A DNA stretch of 64,000 nucleotides from an uncultured Verrucomicrobiae bacterium (GCA_963772365.1 CAVYXA010000001.1:1472001-1536000); one strand, 5' to 3'. Counted from the first letter of the stretch, positions 13,825-46,203 are shown. Notes: generated from the letters alone by a model not told the origin. Numbers and translations: made by a program.

Positions 13825-14125
13825 CAGTCAGCCAGACGTACATCGACGACGATGACGGTTTTAACCGCATCATCTTTTGCCGACCACTTTTGAGAACTGC
13901 TTCGAGGAGATCGATGTTGAGAAGACCTTGGAGGCTCCACCAGCGCCTATCTGTCCTCCAAGCGTTTTTTGAAATTCTTCCGGCGTGAGCCAGTGCGACG
14001 GATCTTTATCGTTCAGACGCCGCGCCATCGTGGCCTGATATGCAGCGTCCGCGCGATGCCGTAAATGAAAAAGGAACGCGGTCAATTCATTTTGTTCCCC
14101 CGGCGAGAGCGTCGCCAGTGATGCT
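13825..14125 (-). pseudogene. Decayed toxin-antitoxin pair (antitoxin 3' part plus internally deleted toxin)
   Basis: SLATLSPGEQNELTAFLFHLRHRADAAYQATMARRLNDKDPSHWLTPEEF(fs)KRLEDR*, then toxin-like fragments ...NIDLLEAVLKSGRQ and DAVKTVIVVDVRLAD*. Confidence 0.5.
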
Positions 14126-14309
14126 CTGGTCGCCGCGCTCGAGACGGTGAAGCGTCGAGGGCGGCAGCCCACTCGGTGCGAAGATTCGGCAACATTTCAC
14201 CTCGGCATTTCCGGAGAAAGCTAGGTTGCAACATAGACTCGCTAGGTGTGGAAATATGGGGCTTTCAAAGAACTTTCGGAACTCCGCTTTCGATTTCCCG
14301 GACAAGTTT

Positions 14310-14366
14310 GTGAGGGCCTCCGATGTTTCGATCACCAAATCGAACGTGGGCACCGGGCTGCCGTGA
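14310..14366 (+). pseudogene. Orphan 3' end of a dockerin-like C-terminal domain
   Basis: VRASDVSITKSNVGTGLP*, with no upstream gene body. Confidence 0.55.
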
Positions 14367-14381
14367 GGGGGCGTCGCCCTC

Positions 14382-14416
14382 CAGAGATCAGAAGACAGAA
14401 GTCAGAGGTCAGAGGG
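14382..14416 (+). repeat. Heptamer tandem repeat (CAGARRN x5)
   Basis: cagagat cagaaga cagaagt cagaggt cagaggg. Confidence 0.75.
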
Positions 14417-14471
14417 TCACACGCGCGAGTGTTCTTGCGTGCTCAAACCGGCAGCGGTATCATCGGTAGAA

Positions 14472-14699
14472 ATGAGCACGCTAACGAAAAACTTGATTGA
14501 AGAAATCAAGGCGGCGCCCGAAACAGTGCAGCGCGAAGTTTTTGATTTTCTTGTTTTCCTGAAAGCTCGGGAGTCCGCGCAACCAGGAGGACAGAAGGAT
14601 CGCCTCGCTCAGGCTGCCGAGGCTCTTCTCGCTGATTACACCTCCGATCCGGAATTGACCGCATTCACAGGCCTGGATGACGAGCCATTTCATGCATAG
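14472..14699 (+). CDS. Antitoxin (DUF2281-like)
   Basis: LIEEIKAAPETVQREVFDFLVFLK...DYTSDPELTAFTGLDDEPFHA; overlaps the mazF-like start. Confidence 0.65.
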   Translation: MSTLTKNLIEEIKAAPETVQREVFDFLVFLKARESAQPGGQKDRLAQAAEALLADYTSDPELTAFTGLDDEPFHA

Positions 14700-15036
14700 A
14701 GGCGAGATTTGGCTGATCAACCTCGATCCCACAGTCGGCGCAGAAATCCGAAAAACCCGTCCTGCCGTTATCATCAACGATGATGCCGTCGGAATTCTAC
14801 CGCTCAAGGTGGTTGTGCCGATTACGGAATGGAAGGACCGTTATCGAGTCGCGCCTTGGATGGCAAGACTTGAGCCCAATCCGACAAACGGCCTGAAGAA
14901 ATCTTCTGCCGCCGATGCATTTCAAGTTCGCTCCGTGGCACAACAGCGTTTCGCTCAACGGATCGGAACGGTGTCAGAGAATCAACTTCGTCAAATCACG
15001 ACAGCCTTGGCCGTCGTATTGAAGATCCATCCCTAA
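14692..15036 (+). CDS. mazF: PemK/MazF-family toxin
   Basis: MHRGEIWLINLDPTVGAEIRKTRPAVII...VVPIT...NGLKKSSAADAFQVRSV. Confidence 0.92.
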   Translation: MHRGEIWLINLDPTVGAEIRKTRPAVIINDDAVGILPLKVVVPITEWKDRYRVAPWMARLEPNPTNGLKKSSAADAFQVRSVAQQRFAQRIGTVSENQLRQITTALAVVLKIHP

Positions 15037-15040
15037 GCAC

Positions 15041-15207
15041 AAGACGAACGGCAAGAGTGCGGTAAACGCCAGCCTGTTCCAAAGGAATCGCGCATCGGCC
15101 AATCGGTGAATGCGACAAACTTCAAATCCGATGCGAATGCCAACAGGCCAATCACCGCCTCCGATATGTCGATCATCAAATCGCACATCGGCATGGGCTC
15201 GCCGTGA
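15041..15207 (+). pseudogene. Degenerate dockerin-type (double Ca-binding repeat) C-terminal domain remnant
   Basis: TNGKSAVNAS(fs)..SRIGQSVNATNFKSDANANRPITASDMSIIKSHIGMGSP*. Confidence 0.6.
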
Positions 15208-15406
15208 ACTGAGAATCTGTACTTGGCACGCAGGAGCCGGTGCTGCGCTTACCGCAGTAGAGAAGCGGCGAGTCAGTCCGAGCCGGACTGGCATCTGTGA
15301 CGAGCGACGAGAATTGCAGCAGCATCTATTGCTGTGGCGGGTTTCAGAACTCTTTGAAGACATTCCTGGGTTGCTGTTTTCCTGATTAAAAATTGACTAC
15401 GCGGTT

Positions 15407-15445
15407 GTCCCGAATTCGGGACTGGGTTGTCCCAAAAGCGGAGCA
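15407..15445. promoter_or_regulatory. Putative enhancer (UAS) sites for the sigma-54 activator
   Basis: Perfect palindrome GTCCCGAATTCGGGAC (15407-15422) and a second imperfect TGTCCC...GGAGCA copy, about 80-115 bp upstream of a -24/-12 promoter. Confidence 0.6.
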
Positions 15446-15521
15446 CTTCGCGCTTCGCCGAAAAAGGATCGACAACTTTTATCGGCTGATCGTCAGCAAC
15501 TTAGAACCGGTCGGGAGCGCG

Positions 15522-15537
15522 TGGCATGCGCGTTGCA
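15522..15537 (+). promoter_or_regulatory. Sigma-54 (-24/-12) promoter
   Basis: TGGCATGCGCGTTGCA = GG-N10-GC. An IHF-like GTCAGCAACTTA lies just upstream. Confidence 0.8.
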
Positions 15538-15617
15538 ACAGGGAGAATCCGAAATGAAAAAACTTTTGAATCCATTACGAGGCCGAAGCGCTTCTAACTA
15601 AGGACGAGAGGGAAATT

Positions 15618-15893
15618 ATGAAATCAAACTCAACCACAAATCACAGCGGGCGGCGATTTCCGCTCGTCGAATATCATTATCAGACCGCGGCTCTGGAGAA
15701 CTTGAGCGGTTCTTGCGTAACAACGCCCAAAGTCAGCCACAGAATCGGCGGCGACTACTTCGATGTCGAAGCGAACCGCGATTTCCTGGGCGATGTTCTG
15801 GTTTTTGGAACGTTAATCGTCACAACAGCGGTGCCGATTCTGACTACCGCGAGCGCAGTGCTCGAGCTTTGCCGAACGCTTCCCTTGTTTTAA
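15618..15893 (+). CDS. Hypothetical small membrane protein leading the ABC operon
   Basis: Good RBS (GAGAGGGA) and a C-terminal hydrophobic segment. Confidence 0.6.
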   Translation: MKSNSTTNHSGRRFPLVEYHYQTAALENLSGSCVTTPKVSHRIGGDYFDVEANRDFLGDVLVFGTLIVTTAVPILTTASAVLELCRTLPLF

Positions 15894-15899
15894 TCATCC

Positions 15900-17228
15900 G
15901 TGACCCCACAACTCCACAAAGACGACGATAATACCATCGTTCGCCCCAGCGGTTTTACTCCCGGCCTTTCATCGATGGATGTTCCTCGCCAAGGCGTAGC
16001 CGCGAAGAAACGGAAGCGCCGGATTCTCATTATTGCCGGGAGCGTCCTCGGCTTAATCGTGGCGACGATCGCATTGTCCCGCCTAAAGCCGGCTGCGCCG
16101 AGCGTAGATCGTTCAAGTGTTTGGATTGACACCGTGAAGCGCGGGCCGATGTTGCGACAGGTCCGCGGTCTCGGCACTCTCGTTCCCGAAGATATCCGTT
16201 GGATCCCGGCGAACACCGAAGGCCGCGTCGAAAAGATTTTGATCTGGCCGGGAACAAAAGTCGAACCCGGTGACGTTATTCTAGAATTGAGCAGTCCGGA
16301 ACTGGAACAAAGCGCGCATGACGCGCAATTGCAGGCGAAAGCGGCGGAAGCGGAGCTTGCCACGATGCGGGCAACTTTGCAGCGCGAGGTGCTTGACCAG
16401 GAATCGAAGACCACAGCGGCCCATGCTGCTTATGAGCAGGCGAAGATGGAGCGCCAGACAAACGATCAATTGGCCAAGAACGGTTTGGTAGCCGAGCTGG
16501 TTTACAAGAGTTCCAAGATCAAAGAAGAAGAAGCGCAAAAAAGCGACGAGATCGAGCAGAAGCGGCTAACATTCTCACGCGATTCAATCGAACCGCAGCT
16601 CGCCTCGAAACAAGCAGCGGTCGATCAAGCGAATCAGCTGGCAAAGTTGAAAGAGGACCAGGTTGAAGCGTTGCATGTGAAAGCGGGAATGACCGGCGTG
16701 TTGCAACAATTGCCGGTCCAAATCGGTCAGCGCGTAAAGGTAGGAGATAATCTCGCTCGCGTCGCAGACCCGACAAAACTTAAGGCCCAGATCAAGATCG
16801 CGGAAACACAGGCGAAAGATATTCAGCCGAAACAGCAGGCGACAATCGACACCCGCAATGGTGTGGTGAAAGGCCACGTCACCCGGGTCGATCCAGCCGT
16901 CGAGCAGGGAACGGTTACTGTCGATGTTGCATTCGATGAACCGTTGCCAAAAGGTGCACGTCCCGATTTGAGCGTCGATGGAACCATTGAGCTGGAGCGT
17001 CTCGACAACGTCGTCTTTGTCGGTCGACCCGCATTTGGTCAGGAAAACAGCACGGTAGGGATGTTTAAACTCGTGGCCGGCAGCAACGAAGCTGTGCGCA
17101 CCCCGGTGAAACTGGGCAAGAGCTCAGTCAATAGCATCGAGATCTTGAGCGGCCTGAATCCCGGCGATCAGGTCATCCTTTCCGACACCAGTGCCTGGGA
17201 TTCACACGAAAGAATTCGACTTAACTAA
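15900..17228 (+). CDS. HlyD/MacA-family periplasmic adaptor (efflux RND/ABC MFP)
   Basis: N-terminal TM, VKRGPMLRQVRGLGTLVPE, coiled coil, GARPDLSVDGTIELERL. Confidence 0.9.
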   Translation: MTPQLHKDDDNTIVRPSGFTPGLSSMDVPRQGVAAKKRKRRILIIAGSVLGLIVATIALSRLKPAAPSVDRSSVWIDTVKRGPMLRQVRGLGTLVPEDIRWIPANTEGRVEKILIWPGTKVEPGDVILELSSPELEQSAHDAQLQAKAAEAELATMRATLQREVLDQESKTTAAHAAYEQAKMERQTNDQLAKNGLVAELVYKSSKIKEEEAQKSDEIEQKRLTFSRDSIEPQLASKQAAVDQANQLAKLKEDQVEALHVKAGMTGVLQQLPVQIGQRVKVGDNLARVADPTKLKAQIKIAETQAKDIQPKQQATIDTRNGVVKGHVTRVDPAVEQGTVTVDVAFDEPLPKGARPDLSVDGTIELERLDNVVFVGRPAFGQENSTVGMFKLVAGSNEAVRTPVKLGKSSVNSIEILSGLNPGDQVILSDTSAWDSHERIRLN

Positions 17229-17235
17229 AACAACT

Positions 17236-17985
17236 ATGCCAACCATGACAACAACCTCGCCCAATCCACATACATCCACTTCTCGCAGCAACGGTTCGAC
17301 ACCGTTGATCCGGCTCGACGGCGTCACCAAAGTGTTTCTCACTGACGAAGTCGAGACGCACGCGCTTTCCGGAATCCATTTGGACATTCGAGACGGCGAA
17401 TACATTTCAATCGCCGGGCCGTCGGGCTGCGGGAAATCGACATTATTGTCGATCCTCGGATTGCTCGATACGCCTTCTGACGGCAGTTATGCGCTGAAAG
17501 GACACGAAGTCGCCAATCTTTCGTTTGCCGATCGCGCGCGAATCCGCAATCGCGAGATCGGTTTCATTTTCCAAAGCTTCAATTTGATCGGCGATCTCAC
17601 GGTTTTTGAAAACGTGGAGTTACCGCTGACTTATCGTGGAATGAGCGCAGGCGATCGCAAAACTCTGGTCACCCAGGCGCTCGATCGCGTGGGAATGGCG
17701 CATCGCGCGAAACATTTGCCGAGCCAGCTTTCGGGAGGTCAGCAGCAACGAGTGGCAGTCGCCCGCGCGCTCGCGGGTAAACCGGCCATTCTGCTTGCGG
17801 ACGAGCCGACGGGAAACCTCGATTCACGCAACGGCGAAGCGGTGATGAATTTGCTCAAGGAGTTGCACGCCGGCGGCGCGACCATTTGCATGGTCACGCA
17901 CGATGAACGTTTCGCGCAACATGCCGACCGCACCGTTCATTTGTTCGATGGCCGCGTTGTCGAAGATAACCGGGTAGCAGCCTAA
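17236..17985 (+). CDS. ABC transporter ATP-binding protein (LolD/MacB type)
   Basis: [38 protein letters not shown]. Confidence 0.95.
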   Translation: MPTMTTTSPNPHTSTSRSNGSTPLIRLDGVTKVFLTDEVETHALSGIHLDIRDGEYISIAGPSGCGKSTLLSILGLLDTPSDGSYALKGHEVANLSFADRARIRNREIGFIFQSFNLIGDLTVFENVELPLTYRGMSAGDRKTLVTQALDRVGMAHRAKHLPSQLSGGQQQRVAVARALAGKPAILLADEPTGNLDSRNGEAVMNLLKELHAGGATICMVTHDERFAQHADRTVHLFDGRVVEDNRVAA

Positions 17986-18014
17986 CGATGTAAGATCGAC
18001 AATCACCGGCGATT

Positions 18015-20489
18015 ATGCTGAGCGAAATCAAAGTGGCGCTGCGGGGCCTGGCGAAAAGTCCCGGGTTCACGGCGATCGCGATTGCAACGCTGGCCTTGGC
18101 GATTGGCGCAAACAGCGCTGTCTTCAGTTTGATCAATGCGTTGTTGGTTCGGCCGCTGCCCTATCAGCAACCGTCCCGAATCGCCGTAATCTGGGAACGC
18201 TTTGCCACACTGGGATTGGATCGGCTTCCGTGTTCGCCGCCGGAATATCTCGACCTGGAAAAAGAATTCCAAAGCGGAAGCGGCCTCGCAGCATTCACGT
18301 TCGAGAGATTCAATCTCGGCGGCGGCGATGTTCCGGAGCGAATCTCGGGCGCGGTGGTAACGCCGTCGTTGTTTCCGCTCCTCGGAGTCGAACCGATTAA
18401 AGGCCGGACGTTTGCGCGCGAAGAGCAGGGAATCGGTCGCGACGATGTGATCGTGATCAGCGAACGGCTTTGGAAACGTCGTTTTAATTCTGATCCCACC
18501 CTCATCGGGAAGAGGCTTCTGTTGAACGGCCGCAGCTACGCTGTGATCGGGATCATGCCGGCACGATTCGAGTTTCCGATTCCATTGTTCGGGCTGAAGG
18601 GAAATCAATTCGCCGAACGGGCGGACATTTGGAAACCGATCGCGTTTACGCCGCTCGAGTTGAAGGAACGCTATTCGCGGAGCTACGGATTAATTACGCG
18701 ATTGCGCCCGGGGGTGTCGATTGCTCAGGCTCAATCTGAGCTGGACACAATCATTTCCCGCTGGATCCAAAGCCATCGCGCTAATTACACGGGAGGCTTT
18801 GGTGCGCGAATTTATCCGCTGCGCGACCAGGTCGTTGGTGGAATGCGAACTGGTCTGGCGATTTTATTCGGCGCAGTGGTTCTTGTTCTGCTGATCGCAT
18901 GCGCAAATCTCGCGACGATGTCGCTGGCGCGCGCGAGTGCACGCGAACGCGAGCTCGCCATTCGAGTTGCCCTGGGAGCAGGATGGTGGCGATTGCTCCG
19001 GCAAATGCTGATCGAAAGCGTGTTGCTCGCTCTTGCCGGTGCCGCCGGCGGTATCTTTCTCTCGGTTTGGGGACTTGAATTTCTCAAACAGATCGGTGCG
19101 CGCACGGTTCCGAGACTCGCCGAAGTAAATGTCGATCTTTTGGTTGTAATCGTGACCGCGGTCGTTTCGGTTGGAACCGGAATTTTGTTTGGATTGATTC
19201 CGGCGTTCGCGACCGCCAAACCCGAACTGACTGAGACACTCAAGGAAGGCAGCCGTTCTTCAACGACCGGTGCGCGCCGAAATCAGGTGCGCAATTCGCT
19301 CGTGGTCGCGGAGATTGCGCTCGCGTTAGTCCTGCTCGTTGGCGCTGGACTGCTGCTAAAAAGTTATGCGCGCGTGCAGAACATCGATCCTGGATTCGAT
19401 CGTCGAAATGTGCTGACGGCGGAGCTGAACCTGTCGGAGACAAAATACCCGCAGCGCGGCAGCGTCGATTACAACAACGGCGCGGCCATGATCAACTTTT
19501 GGAACGAAGGACTCCGCCGAATCCAGCAATTGCCGGGAGTGGAAGGTGCCGCTTACACGGTCATTCTTCCATTGAGTGGATCGAACTCCGATTCATCATT
19601 TTCGATCGAAGGGCAGGTGTTGGGCAAAAACGAACCCGGCCCCGATGAAGAGATCCGCGTCATCTCGCCGGATTACTTTCGCGTATTGAAAACGCCGCTG
19701 TTTCGGGGCCGGTTCTTCCTCGATTCGGACAACGCGGACGCGCCCAAGGTTGCGATCATCAACGACGCGTTGGCGAAAAAGTATTGGCCGAATGAAGAAG
19801 CGCTCGGGAAACGAATCACGTTTAACGACCCACAAAAGAATCCGACGTGGCTCACCATTGTCGGAATCGTCAAAAGTATTCGGCACCGAGGCCTCGATGT
19901 CGATCCTGCGCCGGAATATTACCTGCCGCTTACGCAGCGCGCCGAGGGAACCATGATCCTGACGCTTCGCAGCGCGCAGGATCCCCGCAGTTTAACCTCC
20001 GCGATTCGCCGCGAAATCCAATCGATCGACCCCGACCAACCGATCGCGAACGTGCGCACACTGGAAGCAGTCACCGCCGAGTCGGTTGCTCCGCGCCGGA
20101 TGTCGATGGTGTTGCTCGGCGCGTTTGCGGGCATCGCGTTGCTGTTGGCGAGCGTCGGGATTTACGGAGTGATTTCGTATTTGGTGGTGCAGCGCACGCA
20201 CGAGATCGGCGTGCGAATGGCACTCGGCGCGCAACGCCGCGATGTTTTATGTCTCGTCGTCGGTCACGCAGCTAAACTCGTTGGGATCGGCAGCGTGATC
20301 GGATTGATTCTGGCGTTTTTGTCAACGCGCACGCTTTCGGCGTTGCTTTACAGTGTCGGGGCATTCGACCTTGGCACTTTTCTTTTCGCAACGATCGCGC
20401 TCGGAGCAGTCGCTTTGCTCGCCAGTTACATGCCCGCGCTTCGCGCAACCCGCGCTGATCCGATGATCGCGCTCAGCCATAACGCATGA
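18015..20489 (+). CDS. ABC transporter permease (MacB-like duplicated / ADOP type) 1
   Basis: LALAIGANSAVFS, LLIACANLA, RELAIRVALGA, GIYGVISY..QRTHEIGVRMALGA, ALRATRADPM. Confidence 0.92.
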   Translation: MLSEIKVALRGLAKSPGFTAIAIATLALAIGANSAVFSLINALLVRPLPYQQPSRIAVIWERFATLGLDRLPCSPPEYLDLEKEFQSGSGLAAFTFERFNLGGGDVPERISGAVVTPSLFPLLGVEPIKGRTFAREEQGIGRDDVIVISERLWKRRFNSDPTLIGKRLLLNGRSYAVIGIMPARFEFPIPLFGLKGNQFAERADIWKPIAFTPLELKERYSRSYGLITRLRPGVSIAQAQSELDTIISRWIQSHRANYTGGFGARIYPLRDQVVGGMRTGLAILFGAVVLVLLIACANLATMSLARASARERELAIRVALGAGWWRLLRQMLIESVLLALAGAAGGIFLSVWGLEFLKQIGARTVPRLAEVNVDLLVVIVTAVVSVGTGILFGLIPAFATAKPELTETLKEGSRSSTTGARRNQVRNSLVVAEIALALVLLVGAGLLLKSYARVQNIDPGFDRRNVLTAELNLSETKYPQRGSVDYNNGAAMINFWNEGLRRIQQLPGVEGAAYTVILPLSGSNSDSSFSIEGQVLGKNEPGPDEEIRVISPDYFRVLKTPLFRGRFFLDSDNADAPKVAIINDALAKKYWPNEEALGKRITFNDPQKNPTWLTIVGIVKSIRHRGLDVDPAPEYYLPLTQRAEGTMILTLRSAQDPRSLTSAIRREIQSIDPDQPIANVRTLEAVTAESVAPRRMSMVLLGAFAGIALLLASVGIYGVISYLVVQRTHEIGVRMALGAQRRDVLCLVVGHAAKLVGIGSVIGLILAFLSTRTLSALLYSVGAFDLGTFLFATIALGAVALLASYMPALRATRADPMIALSHNA

Positions 20490-21164
20490 TCGCTCTCCGA
20501 AACCTCGAACGCCAGCCATCCGCTATCGCACGGCAAGTTCTTCTATGTTCTGCGCGATATCGGCATCCACGTTGCCGAGGGAGAATTCGTTTCGGTGATG
20601 GGTCCTTCGGGCGCCGGAAAGTCGACACTCCTTCACATTCTGGGAATGCACGATCACAGCTGGACCGGCGAATATTTCTTCAACGATACCGCAGTTCATC
20701 ATTTGAAAGCCAAAGAACGCGCCGCGCTTCGTAACGACAATATCGGATTTGTTTTCCAACAATATCATCTGCTCGATGATCTGACCGTCTATGAGAATCT
20801 CGAGATTCCCCTCTCCTATCGCAAAGTAAGCAGAGCGGAACGCGCCGCGATCGTGGCCGACGCGCTCGATCGTTTCCAAATGGTAGCCAAGAAGGATCTG
20901 TATCCACGGCAATTGTCCGGCGGCCAGCAACAACTTGTGGGCGTGGCGCGGGCGATCATCGGCAATCCGAAATTGATTCTAGCAGATGAACCAACCGGCA
21001 ATCTTCACTCGAGCCAGGGTGAAGAGATCATGGAGCTATTTCGAAAACTGAATGCCGAGGGCACGACCATCATTCAAGTCACACATTCGGAAAAAAATGC
21101 CGCTTACGGCAACCGCATCATTCAGCTGCGTGACGGTTGGGTGATCGAGCCAAACACAAAGTAA
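20486..21164 (+). CDS. ABC transporter ATP-binding protein 2; frameshift near 20512
   Basis: MIALRNLER(fs)[37 protein letters not shown]...LSGGQQQ...DEPTGNL. Confidence 0.88.
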
Positions 21165-21168
21165 CCAT

Positions 21169-23673
21169 ATGATTCTCGATTCATTTCGTCAGGATGTACG
21201 CGTCGGGCTACGTGTGTTGTTCAAGGACAAATCCTTTTGTTTCCTGGCGGTGCTGGTACTGGCTCTCGGCATCGGTGGTGCGACGACCCAATTCACTGTG
21301 GTTAACGCGATCGTCCTCCGTGGCTTTTCATTTCCGCATCCCGAGCAATTAGCGAGCGTCGGGCTGATCGATCCGAAGGCTACCGACCAGAACAACAACT
21401 TCGGCATTGGCCAAATTCCTTCCGCGCAGGATTACGAAGATCTCAAGGCGGCGCAAAAATCATTCTCGCTCATGGCGGGTTATCTCAGTGGATCGACAAT
21501 CAACCTCACTTACAGGAACAATCCGCAACGTTATACGGGTGGATATGTCACCGAGGATCTTTTCAAAATCGTAGGAGTATCGCCGGCGCTTGGCCGCGAT
21601 TTTACCGCCGAAGACAATAAACCGGGCGCGGAGAAAACGGTCATTTTGGGCGACGAAATCTGGCGGCGCGATTTTGGCGCGGATCCAAACATCATTGGTC
21701 AAGGCGTTCGGGTGAATGGCAAAGCCGCAACCATCATCGGCGTTATGCCTGCGGGTTTTAAATTCCCGTTCTCAGAAGAACTGTGGACACCTTTATATAA
21801 TGAATTTCCGCCCACGCCGCGCGGAGACTTGCGGCTCGGGGCGAACAATAACGCGCCTGCCGTTATCGGTCGCCTCAAAGCCGGTGTCACTCTCGATCAA
21901 GTAAACGCTGAGTTCGTCACACTTGCCCGACGTCTGGCTGAAGAAAATCCGAAGACGAACCAGAATTTTACGTCGGCAAGCGTGCAGCCGTTGCTCTATG
22001 CATTTACTCCCGTGCAACTGCGCCAAACGATTTGGGCAATGCTCGGAGCGGTCATCCTCGTTTTGCTGATCGCATGCGTGAATGTCATGAACATGCAATT
22101 CGGCCGGGCCGCACTGCGGGCCAAGGAACTTGCGATTCGTGGCGCACTGGGGGCGACACGCTGGAGGATCGTTAGGCAAATGTTGACGGAGAGTCTGGTC
22201 GTCGCGGTCTTTGGCGGAGTCGCTGGCATCCTGCTCGCGTTTTGGGGGATTGATATGCTGGTGAGAGCGTTTAGTGCGTCACCGTTTCCCTTGCCTTACT
22301 GGTGGCAATTCACAATCGATGCGCGAGTTCTCGCGTTCACCCTCGTGATTACGCTCGTGGCGACGGTTGTTTCCGGTTTGGTTCCGGCCTTTCTCAGCGC
22401 CCGCGGCAACGCGGCTGAGATCATGAAAGAAGGTGGTCGAGGCAACAGCAGCCGCCTTGTAAACATCATCACGCGCGTACTAGTCGTGGGACAGATCGCC
22501 TTAACCGCCGCGCTTTTGATCGCGGCTACTCTGCAGATCAAGTCGATCCGGAATCAGACCAAGTTGAACTACGGTTACGACGAGAACGCCGTTTATACCG
22601 CACGAATTGCCTTAATGGAAGGCGCATATCCCAACGAAGAAGCGCGGCGGCAATTTTTCATCCATGCGGTGCAGGCGTTACGAGCCGATCCGCACTTCGC
22701 AGCGGCCGCCATGAGCGATCGCTTTCGAATGACGTTCGCTCCAAGCGGTCAATATGAAGTCGATGGTCAGAATTACTTGACCGATCGCGACCGGCCTCGC
22801 GGCAATTTCGAATCTGTCTCCGACAATTACTTTTCCACGCTTGGTGTGAAGATGCTCGAAGGTCGTGACTTCACCGTCAATGACTCGGACACAAAGCAGC
22901 CAGTCGCGATCGTGAACGCGAGTTTTGCGCGAAAGTATTGGGGAAACCAGAGTCCCCTGGGCCATCAGGTTCGCATCTTTAATCCCGGCCAGCCACAACC
23001 GTGGCGAACCATTATCGGGGTGGCTCCGGACATGTTGATGCAGGGCCCCTTCGATCAACAAACAGAGGCCGCTGGTTTTTACATGCCGCTGCTGGGCGCA
23101 TCCCCCACCACGCAGTTTTGCACGATTATCGTTCGGCCGCGTGCCGGGCAGCGCGCAGAAACTCTCGGTCCCGCTCTGAGCAAAGCAGTCACTGAAGTCG
23201 ATTCCAATCTGCCGACCTATTTTCCCGGCACGCCAGCACAATTGCACACCGAAATTCTGAGCGGCCCTCGCATCATCGCGATGTTGTTCAGCATCTTTGG
23301 AATGGTTGCCTTCATTCTCTCAGCGGTTGGCCTTTATGGAGTCATGAGCTTTTCGGTTAACCAGCGAACGCAGGAATTCGGAATCCGCATGGCCCTGGGC
23401 GCCGACGCTGCGCGCATTTTCCGAATGGTTATGCAACAAGGGGCGTGGCAGCTCGGGATTGGACTCGTTCTCGGTGTCGGTGGCGCCGCCTTGTTGCTCG
23501 GTGTGTTGGCTGCGGCTGCCTTGAAAAATATTTTGTTCCAGGTCAATGCGCTGGATCCAACGATTTATTTCCTCGTGGCGGGACTACTCGCGCTCGTCGC
23601 CGCAGTTTCCTGCTTCGTTCCCGCGCGTCGCGCCACCCGTGTCGATCCGATGGTCGCTCTTCGTTACGAATAA
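21169..23673 (+). CDS. ABC transporter permease (ADOP type) 2
   Basis: Same MacB_PCD/FtsX duplicated architecture; ends PARRATRVDPMVALRYE. Confidence 0.92.
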   Translation: MILDSFRQDVRVGLRVLFKDKSFCFLAVLVLALGIGGATTQFTVVNAIVLRGFSFPHPEQLASVGLIDPKATDQNNNFGIGQIPSAQDYEDLKAAQKSFSLMAGYLSGSTINLTYRNNPQRYTGGYVTEDLFKIVGVSPALGRDFTAEDNKPGAEKTVILGDEIWRRDFGADPNIIGQGVRVNGKAATIIGVMPAGFKFPFSEELWTPLYNEFPPTPRGDLRLGANNNAPAVIGRLKAGVTLDQVNAEFVTLARRLAEENPKTNQNFTSASVQPLLYAFTPVQLRQTIWAMLGAVILVLLIACVNVMNMQFGRAALRAKELAIRGALGATRWRIVRQMLTESLVVAVFGGVAGILLAFWGIDMLVRAFSASPFPLPYWWQFTIDARVLAFTLVITLVATVVSGLVPAFLSARGNAAEIMKEGGRGNSSRLVNIITRVLVVGQIALTAALLIAATLQIKSIRNQTKLNYGYDENAVYTARIALMEGAYPNEEARRQFFIHAVQALRADPHFAAAAMSDRFRMTFAPSGQYEVDGQNYLTDRDRPRGNFESVSDNYFSTLGVKMLEGRDFTVNDSDTKQPVAIVNASFARKYWGNQSPLGHQVRIFNPGQPQPWRTIIGVAPDMLMQGPFDQQTEAAGFYMPLLGASPTTQFCTIIVRPRAGQRAETLGPALSKAVTEVDSNLPTYFPGTPAQLHTEILSGPRIIAMLFSIFGMVAFILSAVGLYGVMSFSVNQRTQEFGIRMALGADAARIFRMVMQQGAWQLGIGLVLGVGGAALLLGVLAAAALKNILFQVNALDPTIYFLVAGLLALVAAVSCFVPARRATRVDPMVALRYE

Positions 23674-35902: not shown

Positions 35903-37792
35903 ATGGACATCGAACTGCAAAAGCTGATCGAAGCAGGAAAACTCGCGCCGCAATCTGCCCTGCAGCTGGACAAACTGAAGCCGGCAACCTTTTGTCTGCA
36001 CAAGAGCTGGGGATTTGGTCGGATCGCCGAGTGGAATCTTCTGCTCAATCAAATCGTCATCGATTTCGTCGGGAAAAAAGGACATCCGATGCAACTGCAA
36101 TATGCGGCGGACAACCTGACCCCGATTCCTCCGGAACATTTCCTCGCGCGCAGGGCGACCGATTTGGCCTCCGTCAAAAAGCTCGCCAAAGAAGATCCTG
36201 TCGCGCTCGTGCGCAACATTCTGGAAAGCCTGGATGGTCAGGCCACGCCGCAGCAAATCAGCGAATGGATGATTGGCGATCTGTTTACCGAAGCGGAATG
36301 GAAGCGCTGGTGGGAATCGACCAAGAAACAGCTCAAGACTAGCGGCACGTTTTCCATTCCCGCAAAAAAGAGCGAGCCGATCCAGTTGCGAGGCGAAGGC
36401 GTGTCGCACGCCGATGAACTGATTACTGCATTCCACCAGGCTCGACAGCCGCGGCAACAAATCGCTGCCGTCGATCAGATGGTAAAATCTCATCAGCAAT
36501 TCAAAGAACCCGAAAAGCAATTGCAGCCCGTCATTGCCGCGATCGAGAACGTGGCCGCTCGGAACCAGAAAATGCATCCCGAGATTTCTTTCGAATTGGT
36601 CCTTGGCCGGGACGATCTGCTCAAGCAATTTCCGCAACTTCATACGACGCACGTCGGTCTGACTCTGGGAAAATTGATCGGAGATGAGGAGAAACGGCTG
36701 GTCACGATCCTGCCAAAGTTGTCGGCTGCGAAAGAAAAGCTCGTCTTGCAGGCGTTACCGTCCGCGCTGGGGGAACGATGGAGCGCACGGGCGTTGCAAT
36801 TGATGCAGGCAACTCATGGACGCATGGTGGCCCAGATTCCGCGCGTTTTCAGCGATGCGGGCCGTCATGAGGAATTACGGACGGCGTTGGATCGCAGCAT
36901 TCGCGAGCATTCCGCCACCAGCGAAATGCTGGTCTGGCTCTCTTCCGAACGCGAGGATTGGCCGGATTTGATCAGTCCCGAATTGCTGGCTGCGATTTTA
37001 TCCGCGATTGAGCGCGAACAACATCGGGCAGTGACCAGTCGCAATAGCAAACTGCAGCGGTTGCTGGTCGATGATCGACAATTGATCGCCGATATTTTCA
37101 AGGAAGCAGACGTCGGAATTGCCCGGGACGCAATGCGACGACTCCAGCTGAGTCATTTATTCGACGAATTGACGAAGCGTTCCTTGCTCGCGCGAATCGT
37201 CAAAATCTTCCCCGACCTCGAGAGTATGATCACGGGTGGTCAGGCGGAGGAAAAGGCCGCGCCGCTGATTGTTTCCTGGAGCAGTTTGCAGAAGCGCAAG
37301 GGAGAATACGAAGAACTGGTCAAAAAGAAGATTCCGGAAAACACGCGGGAAATTTCGATCGCGCGATCGTATGGCGATCTAAGCGAAAACTTCGAATACA
37401 AAGCAGCCAAGCAAATGCAGGCCGTTTTGATGCGTCGCAAGACCGAGCTGGAGCAAATGCTGCATCGAGCGCGCGGAACTTCGTTCCAAGATCCGGATAC
37501 TTCGCGCGTCTCCATCGGCACGGTTGTGACCGTTCAGGACAAAGAGAAAGGCGATAAAGAAACTTACACGATTCTCGGCGCGTGGGACGGCGAACCCGAG
37601 CGCCATATCATCTCATATCAAACGGCGATTGGTCAGGCCCTGCTCGGGCATTCAGCCGGCGAAGTCGTCACTCTGAACACCGACCACGGCGCGAGTGAAT
37701 TCGAAATCGTATCGATTGAGGCCGCGCCGCCAGACCAAGCAACCGCCGACGCCGCCCCGTTAGAGACCGACACCGTAGCAGCCGCAAGCTAA
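35903..37792 (+). CDS. greA: Large GreA/GreB-family transcription elongation factor
   Basis: C-terminal ARSYGDLSENFEYKAAK...ISYQTAIGQALLG with a long helical N-terminal extension, as in PVC-superphylum GreA. Confidence 0.85.
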   Translation: MDIELQKLIEAGKLAPQSALQLDKLKPATFCLHKSWGFGRIAEWNLLLNQIVIDFVGKKGHPMQLQYAADNLTPIPPEHFLARRATDLASVKKLAKEDPVALVRNILESLDGQATPQQISEWMIGDLFTEAEWKRWWESTKKQLKTSGTFSIPAKKSEPIQLRGEGVSHADELITAFHQARQPRQQIAAVDQMVKSHQQFKEPEKQLQPVIAAIENVAARNQKMHPEISFELVLGRDDLLKQFPQLHTTHVGLTLGKLIGDEEKRLVTILPKLSAAKEKLVLQALPSALGERWSARALQLMQATHGRMVAQIPRVFSDAGRHEELRTALDRSIREHSATSEMLVWLSSEREDWPDLISPELLAAILSAIEREQHRAVTSRNSKLQRLLVDDRQLIADIFKEADVGIARDAMRRLQLSHLFDELTKRSLLARIVKIFPDLESMITGGQAEEKAAPLIVSWSSLQKRKGEYEELVKKKIPENTREISIARSYGDLSENFEYKAAKQMQAVLMRRKTELEQMLHRARGTSFQDPDTSRVSIGTVVTVQDKEKGDKETYTILGAWDGEPERHIISYQTAIGQALLGHSAGEVVTLNTDHGASEFEIVSIEAAPPDQATADAAPLETDTVAAAS

Positions 37793-38749: not shown

Positions 38750-38899
38750 ATGAGCGCCACGACTGACTGTCCATAGTTTCTATTTCGCGTTAACCGTTTC
38801 CTTGCATTACGAAAACTTGAAACAGTGGCTGGAAGAATGTCGCCAAACGATGGGACTCCGATAGTTTCCTGTATTCGCGCCTGATATGATGCGCTTTAA

Positions 38900-40033
38900 A
38901 TGACCTATTGGCTTGATTTGTTTACCGGCCAGACATGGCAGGAATTTCGCGACCATGGCGCGACTGTGAGCGGATTCCGCAAACGAATGCACAAAGCTGT
39001 CGAGCGAATTAAGCCGGGAGACATTTTGCTCTGTTATTTGACTGGCGTGATGCGATGGGTAGGCGCGCTCGAAGTGTTAGGCCACAGCCGAGACAAGAGC
39101 GCTATTTGGCAATTCGATGAATTTCCTGAACGACTCAGCGTGAAGCCAATCGTGATGTTGTCGCCCGAGCACGGCGTGCCGATGGAAGAACTAGAAGCGA
39201 AGGTGGATTTTTATCGGTCACGCGCAGACCGACCGGGTTTCAATGGATTTCTGCGAATGAGCCCGAACCGGTTCAAACGCGCAGGCGACGGTGAGTTAAT
39301 ATTGGATTTGCTTAGAGCAGCCGAGAAGCAGCCGATCAATCGATCTGTCGATCCAAAGAAACTTGCGCGAAGACCATTCTACAAAGCCGAAGAGAAGCGT
39401 GGCAAGCGGAAAGTCACGATAGTTGTGAGTGTCCCGGAAGCAGATGAACAACAGTCTGACACGCCGGTTGCACCCGAAGCAGAACCGACTGGAACACGCC
39501 ACACCGAAATCCAGTACGCGCTGCTCACTCTAGGTCGGGATATGGGGTTTGATCTCTGGGTTGCACGGAATGATCGTTCTAAGGTTTGGAACGGATCCAA
39601 TCTCGGATCACTGGCTGGAATGGTTGGTCAATTGCCAACTCAATTTAACGAAGCGACTAATCGTACGATCGAACTAATCGACGTTCTCTGGTTGAAGGGA
39701 AATTCGATTGTTGCCGCGTTTGAAGTTGAATCGACAACTTCTGTTTATTCTGGTTTGTTGCGGATGAGCGATTTACTCGCGCTGCAACCAAACCTCTCAA
39801 TCGACTTGTTTCTAGTCGCGCCTGATGATCGCCGGGACAAGGTGGAAAGCGAACTAATGCGTCCGACATTCAAGCTCCGCGAAAAACCGCTTTCGTCGAT
39901 CTGCGGTTTCTTGGGATTCGATTCGCTGGTTGAGAAACTGAAAGCCATCCAGCAACTCGGGTTGGCTTCTTCGCTTAAGCCGGATTTTCTGGAAAAAACG
40001 GCCGAATACTTCGGGAATGAGGATGCAAATTGA
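38900..40033 (+). CDS. EVE-domain + PD-(D/E)xK-like nuclease (candidate modification-dependent restriction enzyme)
   Basis: N-terminal YWL...TWQEF...VERIKPGDILLCYLTG (EVE/PUA-like). C-terminal HTEIQ...IDVLWL...AFEVESTTSVYSGLLRMSDL (restriction-endonuclease fold). Confidence 0.72.
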   Translation: MTYWLDLFTGQTWQEFRDHGATVSGFRKRMHKAVERIKPGDILLCYLTGVMRWVGALEVLGHSRDKSAIWQFDEFPERLSVKPIVMLSPEHGVPMEELEAKVDFYRSRADRPGFNGFLRMSPNRFKRAGDGELILDLLRAAEKQPINRSVDPKKLARRPFYKAEEKRGKRKVTIVVSVPEADEQQSDTPVAPEAEPTGTRHTEIQYALLTLGRDMGFDLWVARNDRSKVWNGSNLGSLAGMVGQLPTQFNEATNRTIELIDVLWLKGNSIVAAFEVESTTSVYSGLLRMSDLLALQPNLSIDLFLVAPDDRRDKVESELMRPTFKLREKPLSSICGFLGFDSLVEKLKAIQQLGLASSLKPDFLEKTAEYFGNEDAN

Positions 40034-40046
40034 GGCGTGCGAATGA

Positions 40047-40670
40047 TTATTCGTAAGATGCCCGACCTAACTTTTGGGCGATCTCATCTGGTTCGATTCG
40101 TCCCAACGTCGGTCTTCGATGGCCGATGTACCGACTCTTATCAACTAGATCACTTTCGCCCTTTGTAGTGTGGAGAAATAGCTGACAGATTGTGAATCCG
40201 GGCCTGATCGCAATGGGAATTTCTCCCACGTTCGTTAGTTCAAGCGTTAGGCAGCCGGTGTACCCCGGATGAACTCCCGCTGCGGTGGCAATGATCAAGC
40301 CACGCCTGCCCCATGATGATTTCCCAATCACGTACGCTGCTAAATTTGTAGGCAGTCGTATCCATTCTAAGGTTGCCGCCAGCACAAAAGAGCGCGGATG
40401 GATGATGTATTCCCCACCGAAGGGTACGAAGTTCGTGCGCGTAAACTTTGCGTCGTTCCACGATCCAGTCTTCGTTGGATCGATTTCAAGCAGCGGCATC
40501 CGTCGTCGGTAGAGCGTGACAAACCATGAACCAAGCCGCAAATCAATCGACGCTGACCCGCTCGCGCTCAAAATTTTGAGATCTGGCTGCGGTCGAATTA
40601 ACAATCGTTCGGGCCTGCTTCCCTCAAGATCCGACAGCAATTTCGCTATTTCGTCAGCCTTTAAAATCAT
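40047..40670 (-). CDS. dcd: dCTP deaminase (trimeric dUTPase-fold Dcd family)
   Basis: MILKADEI...ASIDLRLG...FVLAATLEWIRLP...GKSSWGRRGL...HPGYTGCLTLELTN...ICQL...SRY. Catalytic S/R/E retained; it has its own ATG at 40670. Confidence 0.88.
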   Translation of the reverse strand: MILKADEIAKLLSDLEGSRPERLLIRPQPDLKILSASGSASIDLRLGSWFVTLYRRRMPLLEIDPTKTGSWNDAKFTRTNFVPFGGEYIIHPRSFVLAATLEWIRLPTNLAAYVIGKSSWGRRGLIIATAAGVHPGYTGCLTLELTNVGEIPIAIRPGFTICQLFLHTTKGESDLVDKSRYIGHRRPTLGRIEPDEIAQKLGRASYE

Positions 40671-41909
40671 GATGAAACGACGATCTCTTGGTACTCCAAA
40701 ACTTCGATGGATTTTAGAAGAAGCTCCTTGAGGTACAGTTGATCGTCGAGATTTGATCTGCGGTATATCTGACCACAGATTCTCATCGTGGAAGCCGCGC
40801 CAACCGGCATTTAGAATATTAGCCAAGCAGCCAGCATGTTGTGCGGGCGCGATTAGTTGGAAATCCGCGTAAATCTCATTATTCTTTTCCGTTGAAGGCA
40901 GCGTCAGTGCAGCATCGGTGACAATCTCATTTGCGAGTGTGATCAGCGTCTTAGTTTGATTCTGCGATGCATAATCCGCCAGAGAGAGCAGAAATTTCTT
41001 GTTGCGTTCGTATTCCGCGGGTTCACTGAAGTCTTCAAACAACCCGGCAAAACTCGGTCGCACCTTAACGCCGTACGCATCCGCAGCGGTATCCATGTTC
41101 CCAACACGCCGCTGCAGATTTGGGTAAATCACAGATCGCGTACCTCGCGGTCGCGGGGAAAGTAGATACGCAAATGCCTGACAGTATGATTCGCCAAAAA
41201 TTCGGACGCCTATCACATCGCAAAATGTCTCTTCCATTTGGCGGGTTGCCCAATCTGTGGCAGCCCACCACGTTTGCCGCACAATCAGATCTTCTGTGAC
41301 TGAAGCTTTATCTTGTACTTCCGGATGCAGCGTTTGAAATTCCTGCCACCGAGGTCCAGTGATTTGATTGACGATTTCATCCTCTATTGGTCGGCTAAAC
41401 CGGTTGTGCATAGTCCTGTCGGTCCAAATCGTATGGCCCAGCTCATGACCGGCTAGGGGAACAAGCAACGGATTCGATGATTCGTGAGCTGGCAGCCCGA
41501 TCAGTACAAAATTGGGCAGATGGGTTATTCGTGCGTAAGTGAAAGGACTGTACTCCCACTCGGATGACAAAAGCAGCTTGGCATCTTTCCCCAGAATTTT
41601 CTGGCAAATTCTTAGAATAGGGCGGTAGATTTCAAACGCGTTCCGCACATTCGTTGAACGCAAAATGAAACCGAGGATCGGAAGGTAATCGAACAATCCG
41701 GCGACCTCGGCCATCGACGCGGCACGCATTGTGTCAGGGTCGCTTTCGTCATCAAGATTTGCTAAAATCTCGAGAAAACCGCGGAATCTTCCTTCGATTA
41801 AGTCGAGCGCCCGCTTGGAATCCAGATAAGGAAAGTCTGAAGCTTGGAGCTTCGTTATCTCATCTAGAAACGCTGTGACGCGTCCTTTAGAAAACTCGAG
41901 CGATACCAC
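40667..41909 (-). CDS. Uncharacterised HExxH (gluzincin-like) metalloprotein; frameshift near 40740 fuses it in silico to dcd
   Basis: PLAGHELGHTIW...MEETFCDVIG...YP..RR. The alternative frame gives a natural end LYLKELLLKSIEVLEYQEIVVSS* whose TGA overlaps the dcd ATG (ATGA). Confidence 0.72.
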
Positions 41910-42352
41910 TACCGCCGAAAAGTATGTGTGGGTTCAAGGTCCTGCAATGATTGTCGGTACGCAGTAGCATATTTTGACAGCGCGACGCAAAAATTCCGGA
42001 TTTTTTCTACCTGCTCGGCTTGGGCGTCTTCGGCCAATTTGGTCATGGCATCGGCAATGTCCCCTGCTCCAGTAATTAGTTCGTTGGTTGTCTTGACCGG
42101 GCCTGCCCACTCAGTGGTATCGAGTGCTGGCCCCACAATCGCAAATGTGCTGGAATCAAGCACGGCACGTTTTCCATTCGCAATAGAGCCCTCAAGAGAA
42201 ACTCTCAGCCGATTTCCAATCTCATTCACCGTCGATAAGCCGATACGCCTGCCGCGACGCAGACTGTCAAGCTCGATCGCCGCTTGCGCGGCGAGCATCG
42301 GAAGATCGGGATCATACAAGCGCAAGGATGTGGGAGCACTGAACGGAGACAT
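41909..42352 (-). CDS. Uncharacterised 147-aa helical protein, first gene of the dcd operon
   Basis: RBS AGAAAGGTG before ATG 42352; its TAG overlaps the next gene's GTG. Motifs AAQAAIELD, IRNFCVALS. Confidence 0.7.
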   Translation of the reverse strand: MSPFSAPTSLRLYDPDLPMLAAQAAIELDSLRRGRRIGLSTVNEIGNRLRVSLEGSIANGKRAVLDSSTFAIVGPALDTTEWAGPVKTTNELITGAGDIADAMTKLAEDAQAEQVEKIRNFCVALSKYATAYRQSLQDLEPTHTFRR

Positions 42353-42466
42353 ATTTTTCACCTTTCTGATTTCGACACCGACAAAGAGATTTCGTGCCGG
42401 TGAGACCATTTGGATCCCATGCTATTTTCGCCGGTTGATACCGTGCAAGCATTAAGATGAGTAAAT

Positions 42467-42495
42467 ATTACAAGGGCTTGTTCTCCACTTGTCAA
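42467..42495 (-). promoter_or_regulatory. Sigma-70 promoter of the three-gene dcd operon
   Basis: Minus strand TTGACA-N17-TGTAAT. Confidence 0.7.
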
Positions 42496-42503
42496 CAGCT
42501 TAT

Positions 42504-42550
42504 TCACTATATCTAGTACCCTCTTGAGCTGCACCCCCACTATTTAGTGA
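42504..42550. promoter_or_regulatory. Tandem NrdR-like boxes
   Basis: tcaCtAtATcTaGtac (42504-42519) and cccCactATtTaGtga (42535-42550), 31 bp apart, versus consensus acaCwAtATaTwGtg. Confidence 0.65.
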
Positions 42551-42695
42551 CTCGACGGCGAGAGGATGAGGCGCTCTGCCGATATGCAACCAGCGCGGAT
42601 TGTGCCAATGCGCTGCAATTTCTCCAACACGGCCTCGCGTCGATAGATTTCCCGCAGGGGGAGGTTCTGTTTTTCGCGTAAAGGATTCTAACGAA

Positions 42696-42748
42696 TCATC
42701 CACATCCCTGGCTCGTGCCGCATTCGGTGCAGACGCCGGCGCGGATCA
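42696..42748 (-). pseudogene. Displaced duplicate of the nrdJ 3' end
   Basis: IRAGVCTECGTSQGCG* versus nrdJ IRAGACGVCTECGTSQGCG*. 15-bp direct repeat at 42734-42748 and 42855-42869. Confidence 0.85.
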
Positions 42749-42807
42749 TCCGGTGGCGGCCGGACTGCCGCACATCATTGCCGAAGATCAAATCGCGTTT
42801 CATCAAA

Positions 42808-46037: not shown

Positions 46038-46085
46038 CAACAAGTAATAGCGCAGCTGTCCGGGCGGATGCACAATATGCAGTGC
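46038..46085. promoter_or_regulatory. NrdR boxes upstream of nrdJ
   Basis: gcaCaAtATgcaGtgc (46070-46085) and a weaker caaCaAgtaaTaGcgc 32 bp away. Confidence 0.6.
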
Positions 46086-46203
46086 CGCAGCCGGTCAAGG
46101 CAAGACAAAATTTGTGACATTTTTCGGAGCCTGAGCTTTACCCGGTAAAATCGGCGAGAAGTTCTCGAAAACGTGGGCCGGAGACCCTTCGACTATGCGC
46201 GCG

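Follow-up and report, generated by a model that had tools for sequence, protein, structure and literature searches.

A three-gene cassette next to nrdJ

We analysed a 64,000-nucleotide stretch of DNA from an uncultured Verrucomicrobiae bacterium (GCA_963772365.1, CAVYXA010000001.1:1472001-1536000), hereafter the window, and within it a cassette of three genes that lies directly after nrdJ. The cassette encodes a small helical protein (g1), a metallopeptidase-like protein with an HExxH motif (gene 2) and a deoxycytidine triphosphate (dCTP) deaminase of the dUTPase fold (Dcd, gene 3). All of its elements are on the minus strand between positions 40047 and 42550, and all coordinates given here and in Table 1 are those of the window unless a genome or contig is named. 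An earlier, sequence-only reading of this DNA had described three coupled genes behind a promoter and two NrdR-like boxes, an arrangement that was confirmed from the window sequence.

The starts of the two boxes are 31 bp apart, and the end of the proximal box is separated by 8 bp from the -35 element of the promoter-like site. In the latter, TTGACA occupies 42495..42490 and TGTAAT occupies 42472..42467. A promoter scan of the window did not list this site because its -10 element is without the canonical A at position 2. A leader of approximately 110 nt leads to g1, whose open reading frame (ORF) spans 42409..41909. Its translation probably begins with the ATG at 42352, which is preceded by AAGGTGA and yields a protein of 147 amino acids (aa), and relatives measure 142-160 aa. 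The GTG of gene 2 overlaps the TAG stop of g1 by a single nucleotide at 41909, while dcd begins with the ATG at 40670 and stops at 40047. The segment had also been described as more AT-rich than its flanks, which is correct, albeit modestly (GC content of 0.48-0.53 as against 0.53-0.59). A GC-rich hairpin followed by a T-run is located at 42646-42666 on the plus strand, in the gap that separates the NrdR boxes from the stop of nrdJ, and no plus-strand gene ends there. Since no clear minus-strand terminator after nrdJ was seen in the terminator scan, transcription of nrdJ may read through into the cassette.

Table 1. Features of the cassette and its immediate surroundings in the window.
Feature	Position	Strand	Remarks
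NrdR-type box 1, distal, TCACTAAATAGTGGGG	42535..42550	-	5/6 conserved positions, including C4 and G13; G at T11
NrdR-type box 2, proximal, GTACTAGATATAGTGA	42504..42519	-	6/6 conserved positions
Promoter-like site TTGACA-N17-TGTAAT	42467..42495	-	Read from sequence
g1, 147-aa helical partner protein	41909..42352	-	ORF open up to 42409
Gene 2, M48-like HExxH zincin	40667..41909	-	About 412 aa in relatives; frame broken here
Frameshift joining gene 2 in frame to dcd	40733..40745	-	Homologue tail sits in the +1 frame
Gene 3, dUTPase-fold dCTP deaminase Dcd, 207 aa	40047..40670	-	Matches PF22769 and TIGR02274
Terminator-like hairpin and T-run just past the dcd stop	40002..40014	-	Consensus match only
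Island of about 4 kb: restriction-endonuclease-like gene, cassette and promoter	38751..42806		No counterpart in relatives
Convergent 377-aa protein with restriction-endonuclease-like C-terminal half, outside the cassette	38900..40033	+	PADLOC REase_II

The three genes are a strictly conserved unit

Relatives of gene 2 were sought in one genome per species across 185,579 species. The search returned 137 relatives, from which 80 loci were kept. A dcd gene lies directly downstream of gene 2 in 75 of the 80 loci, and the five misses are contig ends. Using a profile of g1, we found g1 directly upstream of gene 2 in 79/80 loci, the sole miss being a contig that starts at gene 2. Homologues of genes 1 and 2 thus co-occur with Dcd, as the sequence-only reading had proposed to check. 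The carriers belong to the Planctomycetota, Verrucomicrobiota, Acidobacteriota, Nitrospirota, Desulfobacterota, Alpha- and Gammaproteobacteria, Actinomycetota, Gemmatimonadota and Saccharimonadales, among others. When 979 crude ORFs were clustered all against all, g1, gene 2 and dcd were the only genes common to the loci, except in four identical Rhizobium loci. On this clustering, we rejected the possibility that the cassette is accompanied by nrd genes or by a fourth gene of any kind. Judged by gene order, the trio is a real, strictly conserved unit across many phyla.

The family is also sizeable. In a collection clustered at 90% identity, 955 of the 8000 candidates scored matched gene 2 at E<=0.001, the best at 76% identity. 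Among the best 120 of these matches, every source name shown was 'hypothetical protein', and a Pfam domain was found only in the fusion protein P0048, by way of its Dcd part. Querying with the fused ORF of the window (described below) gave 651 representatives of 50%-identity clusters at E<=1e-30; most of these clusters are presumably gene 2, and the count takes in Dcd matches too, the best Dcds included. Two independent natural fusions of gene 2 to Dcd, with different linkers, are present among the 150 best representatives (P0048, 665 aa; P0132, 622 aa).

The deaminase belongs to a subfamily of its own

The product of gene 3 matches PF22769 (1.2e-29; 103.8 bits against a cut-off of 27) and TIGR02274 (114 bits against a cut-off of 92.8). 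Residues S118, R122 and E144 are invariant and S119 is nearly so in 28 cassette Dcds; we take the catalytic Ser, Arg and Glu to correspond to S111, R115 and E138 of the E. coli enzyme. The original assignment as a dUTPase-fold Dcd with intact Ser, Arg and Glu residues is therefore borne out by the curated models and by the invariant columns. We then compared the 28 cassette Dcds with eight housekeeping Dcds in a tree, from which three mis-extracted rows were left out. Mean identity is 54% among cassette Dcds across phyla and 22% to the housekeeping Dcds, and a branch with a support of 1.0 splits the cassette Dcds from all eight housekeeping enzymes. By these comparisons, the cassette Dcds are a subfamily of their own.

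Gene 2 resembles M48 peptidases

The HELGH motif of gene 2 (H155, E156, H159) and the downstream E227-x-x-C230-D231, both of which had been picked out in the sequence-only reading, proved to be invariant or nearly so in alignments of 22-71 homologues. An AlphaFold model of the intact relative P0001 reached a predicted local distance difference test (pLDDT) score of 90.6. Foldseek returned no match in the PDB at E<=0.001 with either the whole model or a domain model. A wider fold search with the whole 412-aa model gave only generic helical-bundle matches to residues 1-135, and for this reason residues 88-290 were folded alone. When this domain model (window residues 88-290, pLDDT 88) was compared with 48,161 chains, M48 peptidases took the top four places: ZMPSTE24 (Z 7.0, root-mean-square deviation 3.9 over 128 residues), Ste24p (Z 5.8), BepA (Z 5.0) and 3c37 (Z 4.8). 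The next matches were other zincins, namely M13, PprI and BlaR1 (PprI/IrrE, Z 4.2).

Alignment by hhalign to ten M48 domains from host relatives placed E227 and D231 with the ExxAD motif, and YPxxxxRV with HPxxxxRI, at a probability of 34%. Gene 2 thus has the HExxH and downstream Glu of M48, with Cys replacing Ala and Tyr replacing His. M48 was not recognised for gene 2 in NCBIfam or by a PDB sequence search, and a gene 2 profile run against PDB sequences gave chance matches only (E>=0.3). Since the protein has M48-like motifs and a modest similarity in fold but no match to the Pfam M48 family, we call it M48-like and not an M48 member. In its models the protein looks soluble and helical, and not like a membrane protein. 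In a language-model atlas, gene 2 fell among unnamed clusters only; the nearest named ones were Peptidase_U49 (Lit) and M48, with a score of 0.79, which is a weak lead. A search with the Lit family PF10463 matched none of 250 genomes, control genomes included, and no Pfam match was found for gene 2.

A predicted complex between g1 and the peptidase

Pfam, PADLOC, NCBIfam and PHROGs gave no match for g1 or gene 2, the language-model atlas gave nothing usable for g1, and no relatives of g1 were detectable outside the cassette. The conserved motifs of g1 are an N-terminal DLPxLAxxAAIELD, LRxFCxALS and, at the extreme C-terminus, HPFRR. We modelled gene 2 (residues 1-394), Dcd and g1 together as three chains, using 28-row alignments from matched loci, and scored only the placement of g1. 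The model seats g1 on gene 2 only, with a score of 0.70 as against 0.00 for the best of three controls. For reference, the 0.70 mark is reached by 116 of 157 solved complexes and by 2 of 215 mismatched pairs. Predicted contacts involve residues 41-74, 128-130, 168-176, 205-222 and 259-261 of gene 2 and residues 9-37, 65-74, 86-92 and 119-140 of g1. Three runs of the model agree in at least 57% of contacts, with a partner pLDDT of at least 73. Contact between g1 and the peptidase is thus supported by modelling.

The peptidase gene of the window copy is frameshifted

In the sequence as it stands, genes 2 and 3 of the window form one ORF of 620 aa (41909..40047). The homologues of approximately 412 aa end in ...LKELLLKSIEVLEYEEI... 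followed by a stop, a tail that is found in the +1 frame of the window. The homologue C-terminus reads LKELLLKSIEVLEY...stop, and the native-frame TGA (40669-40667) overlaps the dcd ATG as ATGA. The break replaces the conserved last helix (the last 20 or so codons) with 24 unrelated residues that continue in frame into Dcd. Upstream of it, the window protein is 77% identical to P0001 over residues 1-392, and the alignment is ungapped to residue 394. The frameshift may be a mutation or an assembly error. It had evidently been noticed in the sequence-only reading, which speaks of a frame-corrected operon. ATGA coupling is the norm of the family: a 4-nt overlap between gene 2 and dcd was found in 33 of 61 loci, and an overlap of any length in 46 of 61. 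The coupling first described for the window, through TAG/GTG and ATGA overlaps, therefore stands for g1 and gene 2 and, as to the ATGA, for the family; in the window itself the ATGA is in the displaced frame and genes 2 and 3 are fused.

Damage to the peptidase gene was also observed in a second copy, L093, which is described in the next section. There, at positions 855-1763 of the contig, the peptidase gene has lost about 110 codons by a deletion that is out of frame. Both g1 and dcd are intact, and a different frame still preserves the former C-terminal tail and ATGA junction.

NrdR boxes are confined to a few lineages

In the accessible part of a published description, NrdR sites consist of two 16-bp boxes with conserved positions C4, A6, A8, T9, T11 and G13, separated by a linker of 15-16 bp (PMC13584703). 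The operator of the window follows this scheme, with six of six positions in box 2, five of six in box 1 and a linker of 15 bp. By sequence, the boxes are a good predicted NrdR operator in this copy. The host genome encodes nrdR. With up to one mismatch, the box core occurs at 108 sites in the whole 3.35-Mb genome, whose sole exact core (G000:C1:775335-775348) is just upstream of nrdR itself (774872-775312, minus strand), a position that suggests autoregulation. The window has only two near-consensus cores, one upstream of nrdJ and the other upstream of the cassette. The nrdJ site (46071-46117, minus strand) is composed of a proximal box, GCACTGCATATTGTGC, with 5/6 positions and a distal box, TCACAAATTTTGTCTT, with 4/6, and is no better than that of the cassette. 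Since the listed TTG start of nrdJ at 46098 falls inside this site, the real start is probably further downstream.

The closest cassette with fetchable DNA is L093, which comes from a metagenome contig of 2.4 kb and has a gene 2 with 71% identity to that of the window. It has the same layout, with boxes of 5/6 and 6/6 positions, a linker of 16 bp and 8 bp to TTGACA. The two copies have diverged in the stretch that separates the boxes, while the boxes, TTGACA and its distance to box 2 have been kept. Two gammaproteobacterial copies, L066 and L068, have a perfect box core in common at -140, and L055 has a weaker box, TACTATATATAGTA. Strong boxes were thus found in 4 of 64 cassette upstream regions (the window, L093, L066 and L068), while shuffled upstream regions contained 1.5 on average and 6 at most. 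By this comparison, NrdR boxes were rejected as a general feature of the cassette. The proposal that the module is responsive to deoxynucleoside triphosphates (dNTPs) consequently does not hold in general; the boxes are lineage-specific, and therefore the term fits the window copy and not the system as a whole.

The cassette is mobile and horizontally acquired in its host lineage

Queried with P0001, gene 2 was not found in any of 60 host relatives (one from its genus, 35 from its family and 24 from its order). With the host (G000) included, 61 genomes were searched, 46 of which have a completeness of 90% or more and a contamination of no more than 5%. The counts of relatives for gene 2 and for Dcd take in G008, an unpublished genome whose sequence was not otherwise drawn on. 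The interval 38751-42806 had no match in the relatives G006, G007 and G011; in G006, which is of the same genus, nrdJ is on a different contig from the left flank with its GreA-like and DUF1761 genes. A Dcd-family gene was not found in 15/15 genomes of the same family and is present in 9 of 10 other families of the order. The sequence-only reading had named, as grounds for doubt, that this might be the host's only, vertically inherited dcd. It is indeed the only Dcd/dUTPase-family match found in the host genome (90% complete), but it is not vertically inherited. The host has three zinc deaminases, the best of which has a frame of 210 aa, the size of a dCMP deaminase, and the lineage therefore probably makes dUMP another way. 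Among five other carriers, four have a separate housekeeping dcd and all five a dUTPase-like match; the fifth has the latter alone. By these distributions the cassette is accessory and horizontally acquired in its host.

Ten conjugative Rhizobium plasmids carry the cassette. In pRetR611c, it is flanked by a Fic gene on one side and by S8/trypsin peptidase, AAA ATPase and integrase genes on the other. The cassette occupies 11589-13838 of L084, the locus of this Rhizobium phaseoli plasmid. Directly downstream of it (14058-22299), we observed genes for an S8 and trypsin-like peptidase of 930 aa, another trypsin-like peptidase of 690 aa and an AAA/NACHT-like ATPase of 1123 aa; this three-gene block looks like a separate candidate conflict system. 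No cassette match was found in 50,697 phage records of GenBank. Three cassette loci were present among 2.9 million viral contigs, a result that is neither for nor against a role in defence.

Cassettes lie among defence genes

On either side of the cassette, we took the two closest crude ORFs with a length of 100 aa or more (139 proteins from 52 loci) and compared them with PADLOC models at E<=1e-5. As a control, 139 random ORFs were taken from 18 arbitrary 10-kb regions in six carrier genomes, with the same caller and threshold. PADLOC models matched 27/139 neighbours, distributed over 21 loci, as against 4/139 random ORFs (Fisher p = 1.2e-5). The suggestion that homologues might sit in defence islands is in line with this enrichment. 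Matches include a type IV methyl-directed restriction enzyme, AbiEi/AbiEii, type I and III restriction-modification systems, DpdF, KwaB (2.5e-138), NACHT, TIR and the candidates PDC-S70, PDC-S66 and PDC-M72A.

In the window, the convergent 377-aa protein matches PADLOC REase_II (6.6e-17) over residues 199-326, and its N-terminal 125 or so residues weakly match NCBIfam NF002008 (1.8e-6). This part may be PUA/EVE-like and recognise modified bases, in which case the protein would be a type IV-like restriction enzyme. This gene is not kept beside the cassette elsewhere. Further to the left, at 35903-37792 on the plus strand, a 629-aa protein contains the N- and C-terminal domains of GreA/GreB only at residues 457-606, and its 450-residue N-terminal extension has no Pfam match; the protein is conserved in same-family relatives.

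Interpretation

The cassette is a widespread, unnamed, self-contained mobile unit that joins g1 and an M48-like metallopeptidase to a cassette-specific Dcd. We put the probability at roughly one half that it is an undescribed, dCTP-depleting module against phages or other mobile elements that operates under protease control, a function that we infer. In such a defence module, Dcd would be the effector, converting dCTP to dUTP or dUMP, and replication would be starved of dCTP or loaded with uracil. The g1-peptidase pair would provide sensing and control, with g1, Dcd or a linker as the substrate of proteolysis. The window copy entered a lineage without a Dcd of its own, where it sits in a 4-kb island after nrdJ, and its frameshift fuses the peptidase to Dcd. 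NrdR derepresses under dNTP scarcity. Given the tandem NrdR operator in the window copy, repression is expected when dATP and ATP load NrdR. The enzyme activities, the identity of what cleaves what, the trigger and the effect on phages are all things that we infer. More tentatively, and at somewhat less than even odds, the cassettes could represent a new immune family in which a partner-held M48-like protease controls a dUTPase-fold deaminase that collapses dCTP or floods the cell with dUTP on infection. This would be a second, independent immunity based on dCTP deamination, plugged into NrdR in some lineages and domesticated into pyrimidine metabolism in some.

Several points weigh against a protease-controlled defence module. 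The M48 fold match is modest, with a Z of 7 that is within the range reached by unrelated models, and Pfam M48 (PF01435) matches none of 22 gene 2 members at E<=5. The score of the g1 complex is the model's own confidence. The neighbour test was based on a crude ORF caller and on matches to single models rather than on full system calls, and PADLOC gave no matches for g1 or the gene 2-Dcd ORF, nor does any defence library recognise one of the three proteins. The peptidase gene is damaged, with g1 and dcd intact, in both readable copies of the NrdR-boxed sub-clade, where Dcd alone may be kept by selection (n=2). Finally, NrdR control suits dNTP metabolism at least as well as it suits defence.

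The last two points bear on a metabolic role, which we regard as unlikely. The cassette would then be an accessory module that supplies dUTP or dUMP for dTTP synthesis, co-regulated with ribonucleotide reductase (RNR) by NrdR; the peptidase and g1 would tune or mature the enzyme, and the module would have been domesticated in the host lineage without Dcd. The tandem boxes are shared by the window and L093 in spite of divergence in the intervening sequence, NrdR-type boxes also occur in L066 and L068 and, in weaker form, in L055, and nrdR is present with the only exact box core of the genome. With no Dcd-family gene in 15/15 same-family genomes, a new Dcd could be useful. The Dcd scores above the NCBI equivalog cut-off, and in both the window and L093 dcd is intact beside a damaged peptidase gene. 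Set against this, 59 or 60 of the 64 upstream regions have no recognisable box, and four of five other carriers already possess a housekeeping dcd, from which the cassette subfamily is far removed. Furthermore, a plain enzyme has no need of an obligatory peptidase or partner, whereas essentially all loci retain the two, and the distribution is patchy, plasmid-borne and beside defence genes.

Somewhat less probable still is a toxin-antitoxin-like addiction or stabilisation module, in which Dcd would be a toxin neutralised by g1, the peptidase or both, to the benefit of the plasmid or island. The compact, translationally coupled operon of small genes, its carriage on conjugative plasmids and in variable islands, the AbiE-type and other toxin-antitoxin-like neighbours and the predicted binding of g1 to the peptidase are all consistent with such a module. 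The model, however, seats g1 on the peptidase and not on Dcd, and three components with a 412-aa enzyme as 'antitoxin' would be unusual. This explanation overlaps with a defence function and is not exclusive of it. Dcd enzymes are nucleotide-regulated, and this, together with zincin residues that are invariant or nearly so and the Lit and M48 clusters nearest to gene 2 in the atlas (0.79, only a lead), would suit a reversal of roles in which the effector is the peptidase, which would cut an essential protein of host or phage in the manner of Lit, and the Dcd-like protein senses phage-induced changes in dCTP or modified dCTP, but we consider this improbable, since the invariant Ser, Arg and Glu columns of Dcd argue for catalysis rather than sensing alone and the peptidase is the component damaged in two copies in which Dcd is kept.

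If the cassette does defend against phages, dCTP-deamination immunity would have arisen twice, on unrelated enzyme folds, and proteolytic control would join the ways in which nucleotide-depleting effectors are silenced. Two sizeable unannotated protein families, gene 2 and g1, would gain a testable role. The NrdR-boxed copies would be a natural case of a mobile module wired into the dNTP-sensing regulon of its host, and they may show how an effector is taken over for metabolism in a lineage that lost Dcd. Were the cassette only metabolic, it would still be an unusual, mobile, three-part route to dUMP.

Comparison with known systems

The sequence-only reading had not recognised the trio as a named system, and we likewise found no name for it in the libraries and literature searched (subscription journals and supplementary tables being outside their scope). 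A PADLOC run on the window proteins, which had been proposed as a check, gave no match to g1 or to the gene 2-Dcd ORF. In the full-text literature, within the same scope, no Dcd-fold deaminase was found together with a metalloprotease in defence, and the passages of the eLife 2020 paper on conflict systems retrieved by term look-up do not describe the trio.

Cassette Dcds have the fold family of housekeeping Dcds (TIGR02274/PF22769) in common with them, pass the curated cut-offs and keep the catalytic Ser, Arg and Glu. Unlike the housekeeping enzymes, they carry an N-terminal MILKADxIA motif and a conserved C-terminal tail, are mobile, are extra to a housekeeping copy in four of five other carriers and were never seen without g1 and the zincin (in 80 loci gathered by way of gene 2). 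The operator of the window resembles those of RNR operons in its two 16-bp boxes, conserved positions, 15-bp linker and location beside a promoter. In contrast to the latter, it heads a horizontally acquired operon that does not encode RNR, its boxes lie upstream of the -35 element and not over the promoter, and few cassette lineages have it. Gene 2 shares with the M48 peptidases (Ste24/ZMPSTE24, HtpX, BepA) the HExxH motif, a Glu-x-x-(A/C)-Asp approximately 70 residues later and (H/Y)PxxxxR(I/V), and differs from them by an N-terminal three-helix bundle, which contacts g1 in the model, and a C-terminal helical domain.

Protease switches tied to defence are familiar from ImmA/IrrE-type proteases and from Lit of e14. 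The pairing of a zinc metallopeptidase with a small bound partner beside an immune effector also recalls CapP and CapH of the cyclic oligonucleotide-based anti-phage signalling systems (CBASS), as presented in the portion of the CapH/CapP preprint consulted. In comparison with CapP/CapH, ImmA/IrrE and Lit, g1 has no recognisable DNA-binding domain or family, the cassette peptidase is M48-like and not M78, the effector is a nucleotide deaminase and cleavage is hypothetical.

The nearest relatives in expected chemistry are the anti-phage deaminases. As the available text of each source describes them, the dCTP deaminase of Tal et al. is a single chain of 576 aa with an N-terminal kinase and a zinc cytosine-deaminase domain (10.1101/2021.04.26.441389), and AvcD of AvcID is a deoxycytidylate deaminase toxin with an RNA antitoxin (AvcID paper). 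That AvcD-type deaminases have a different fold had been stated in the sequence-only reading, and this agrees with the kinase and zinc cytosine deaminase of the Tal enzyme, as far as its description was available, and the PF22769/TIGR02274 assignment of the cassette. On the same partial descriptions, the systems are alike in their occurrence in defence islands and in the deamination of deoxycytidine nucleotides that would starve phage replication; they are unlike in that the cassette deaminase has the dUTPase/Dcd fold and does not qualify as a zinc cytosine deaminase. It is, moreover, not matched by PADLOC and comes with a zincin and a helical partner. The cassette is a candidate variant of nucleotide-depletion immunity.

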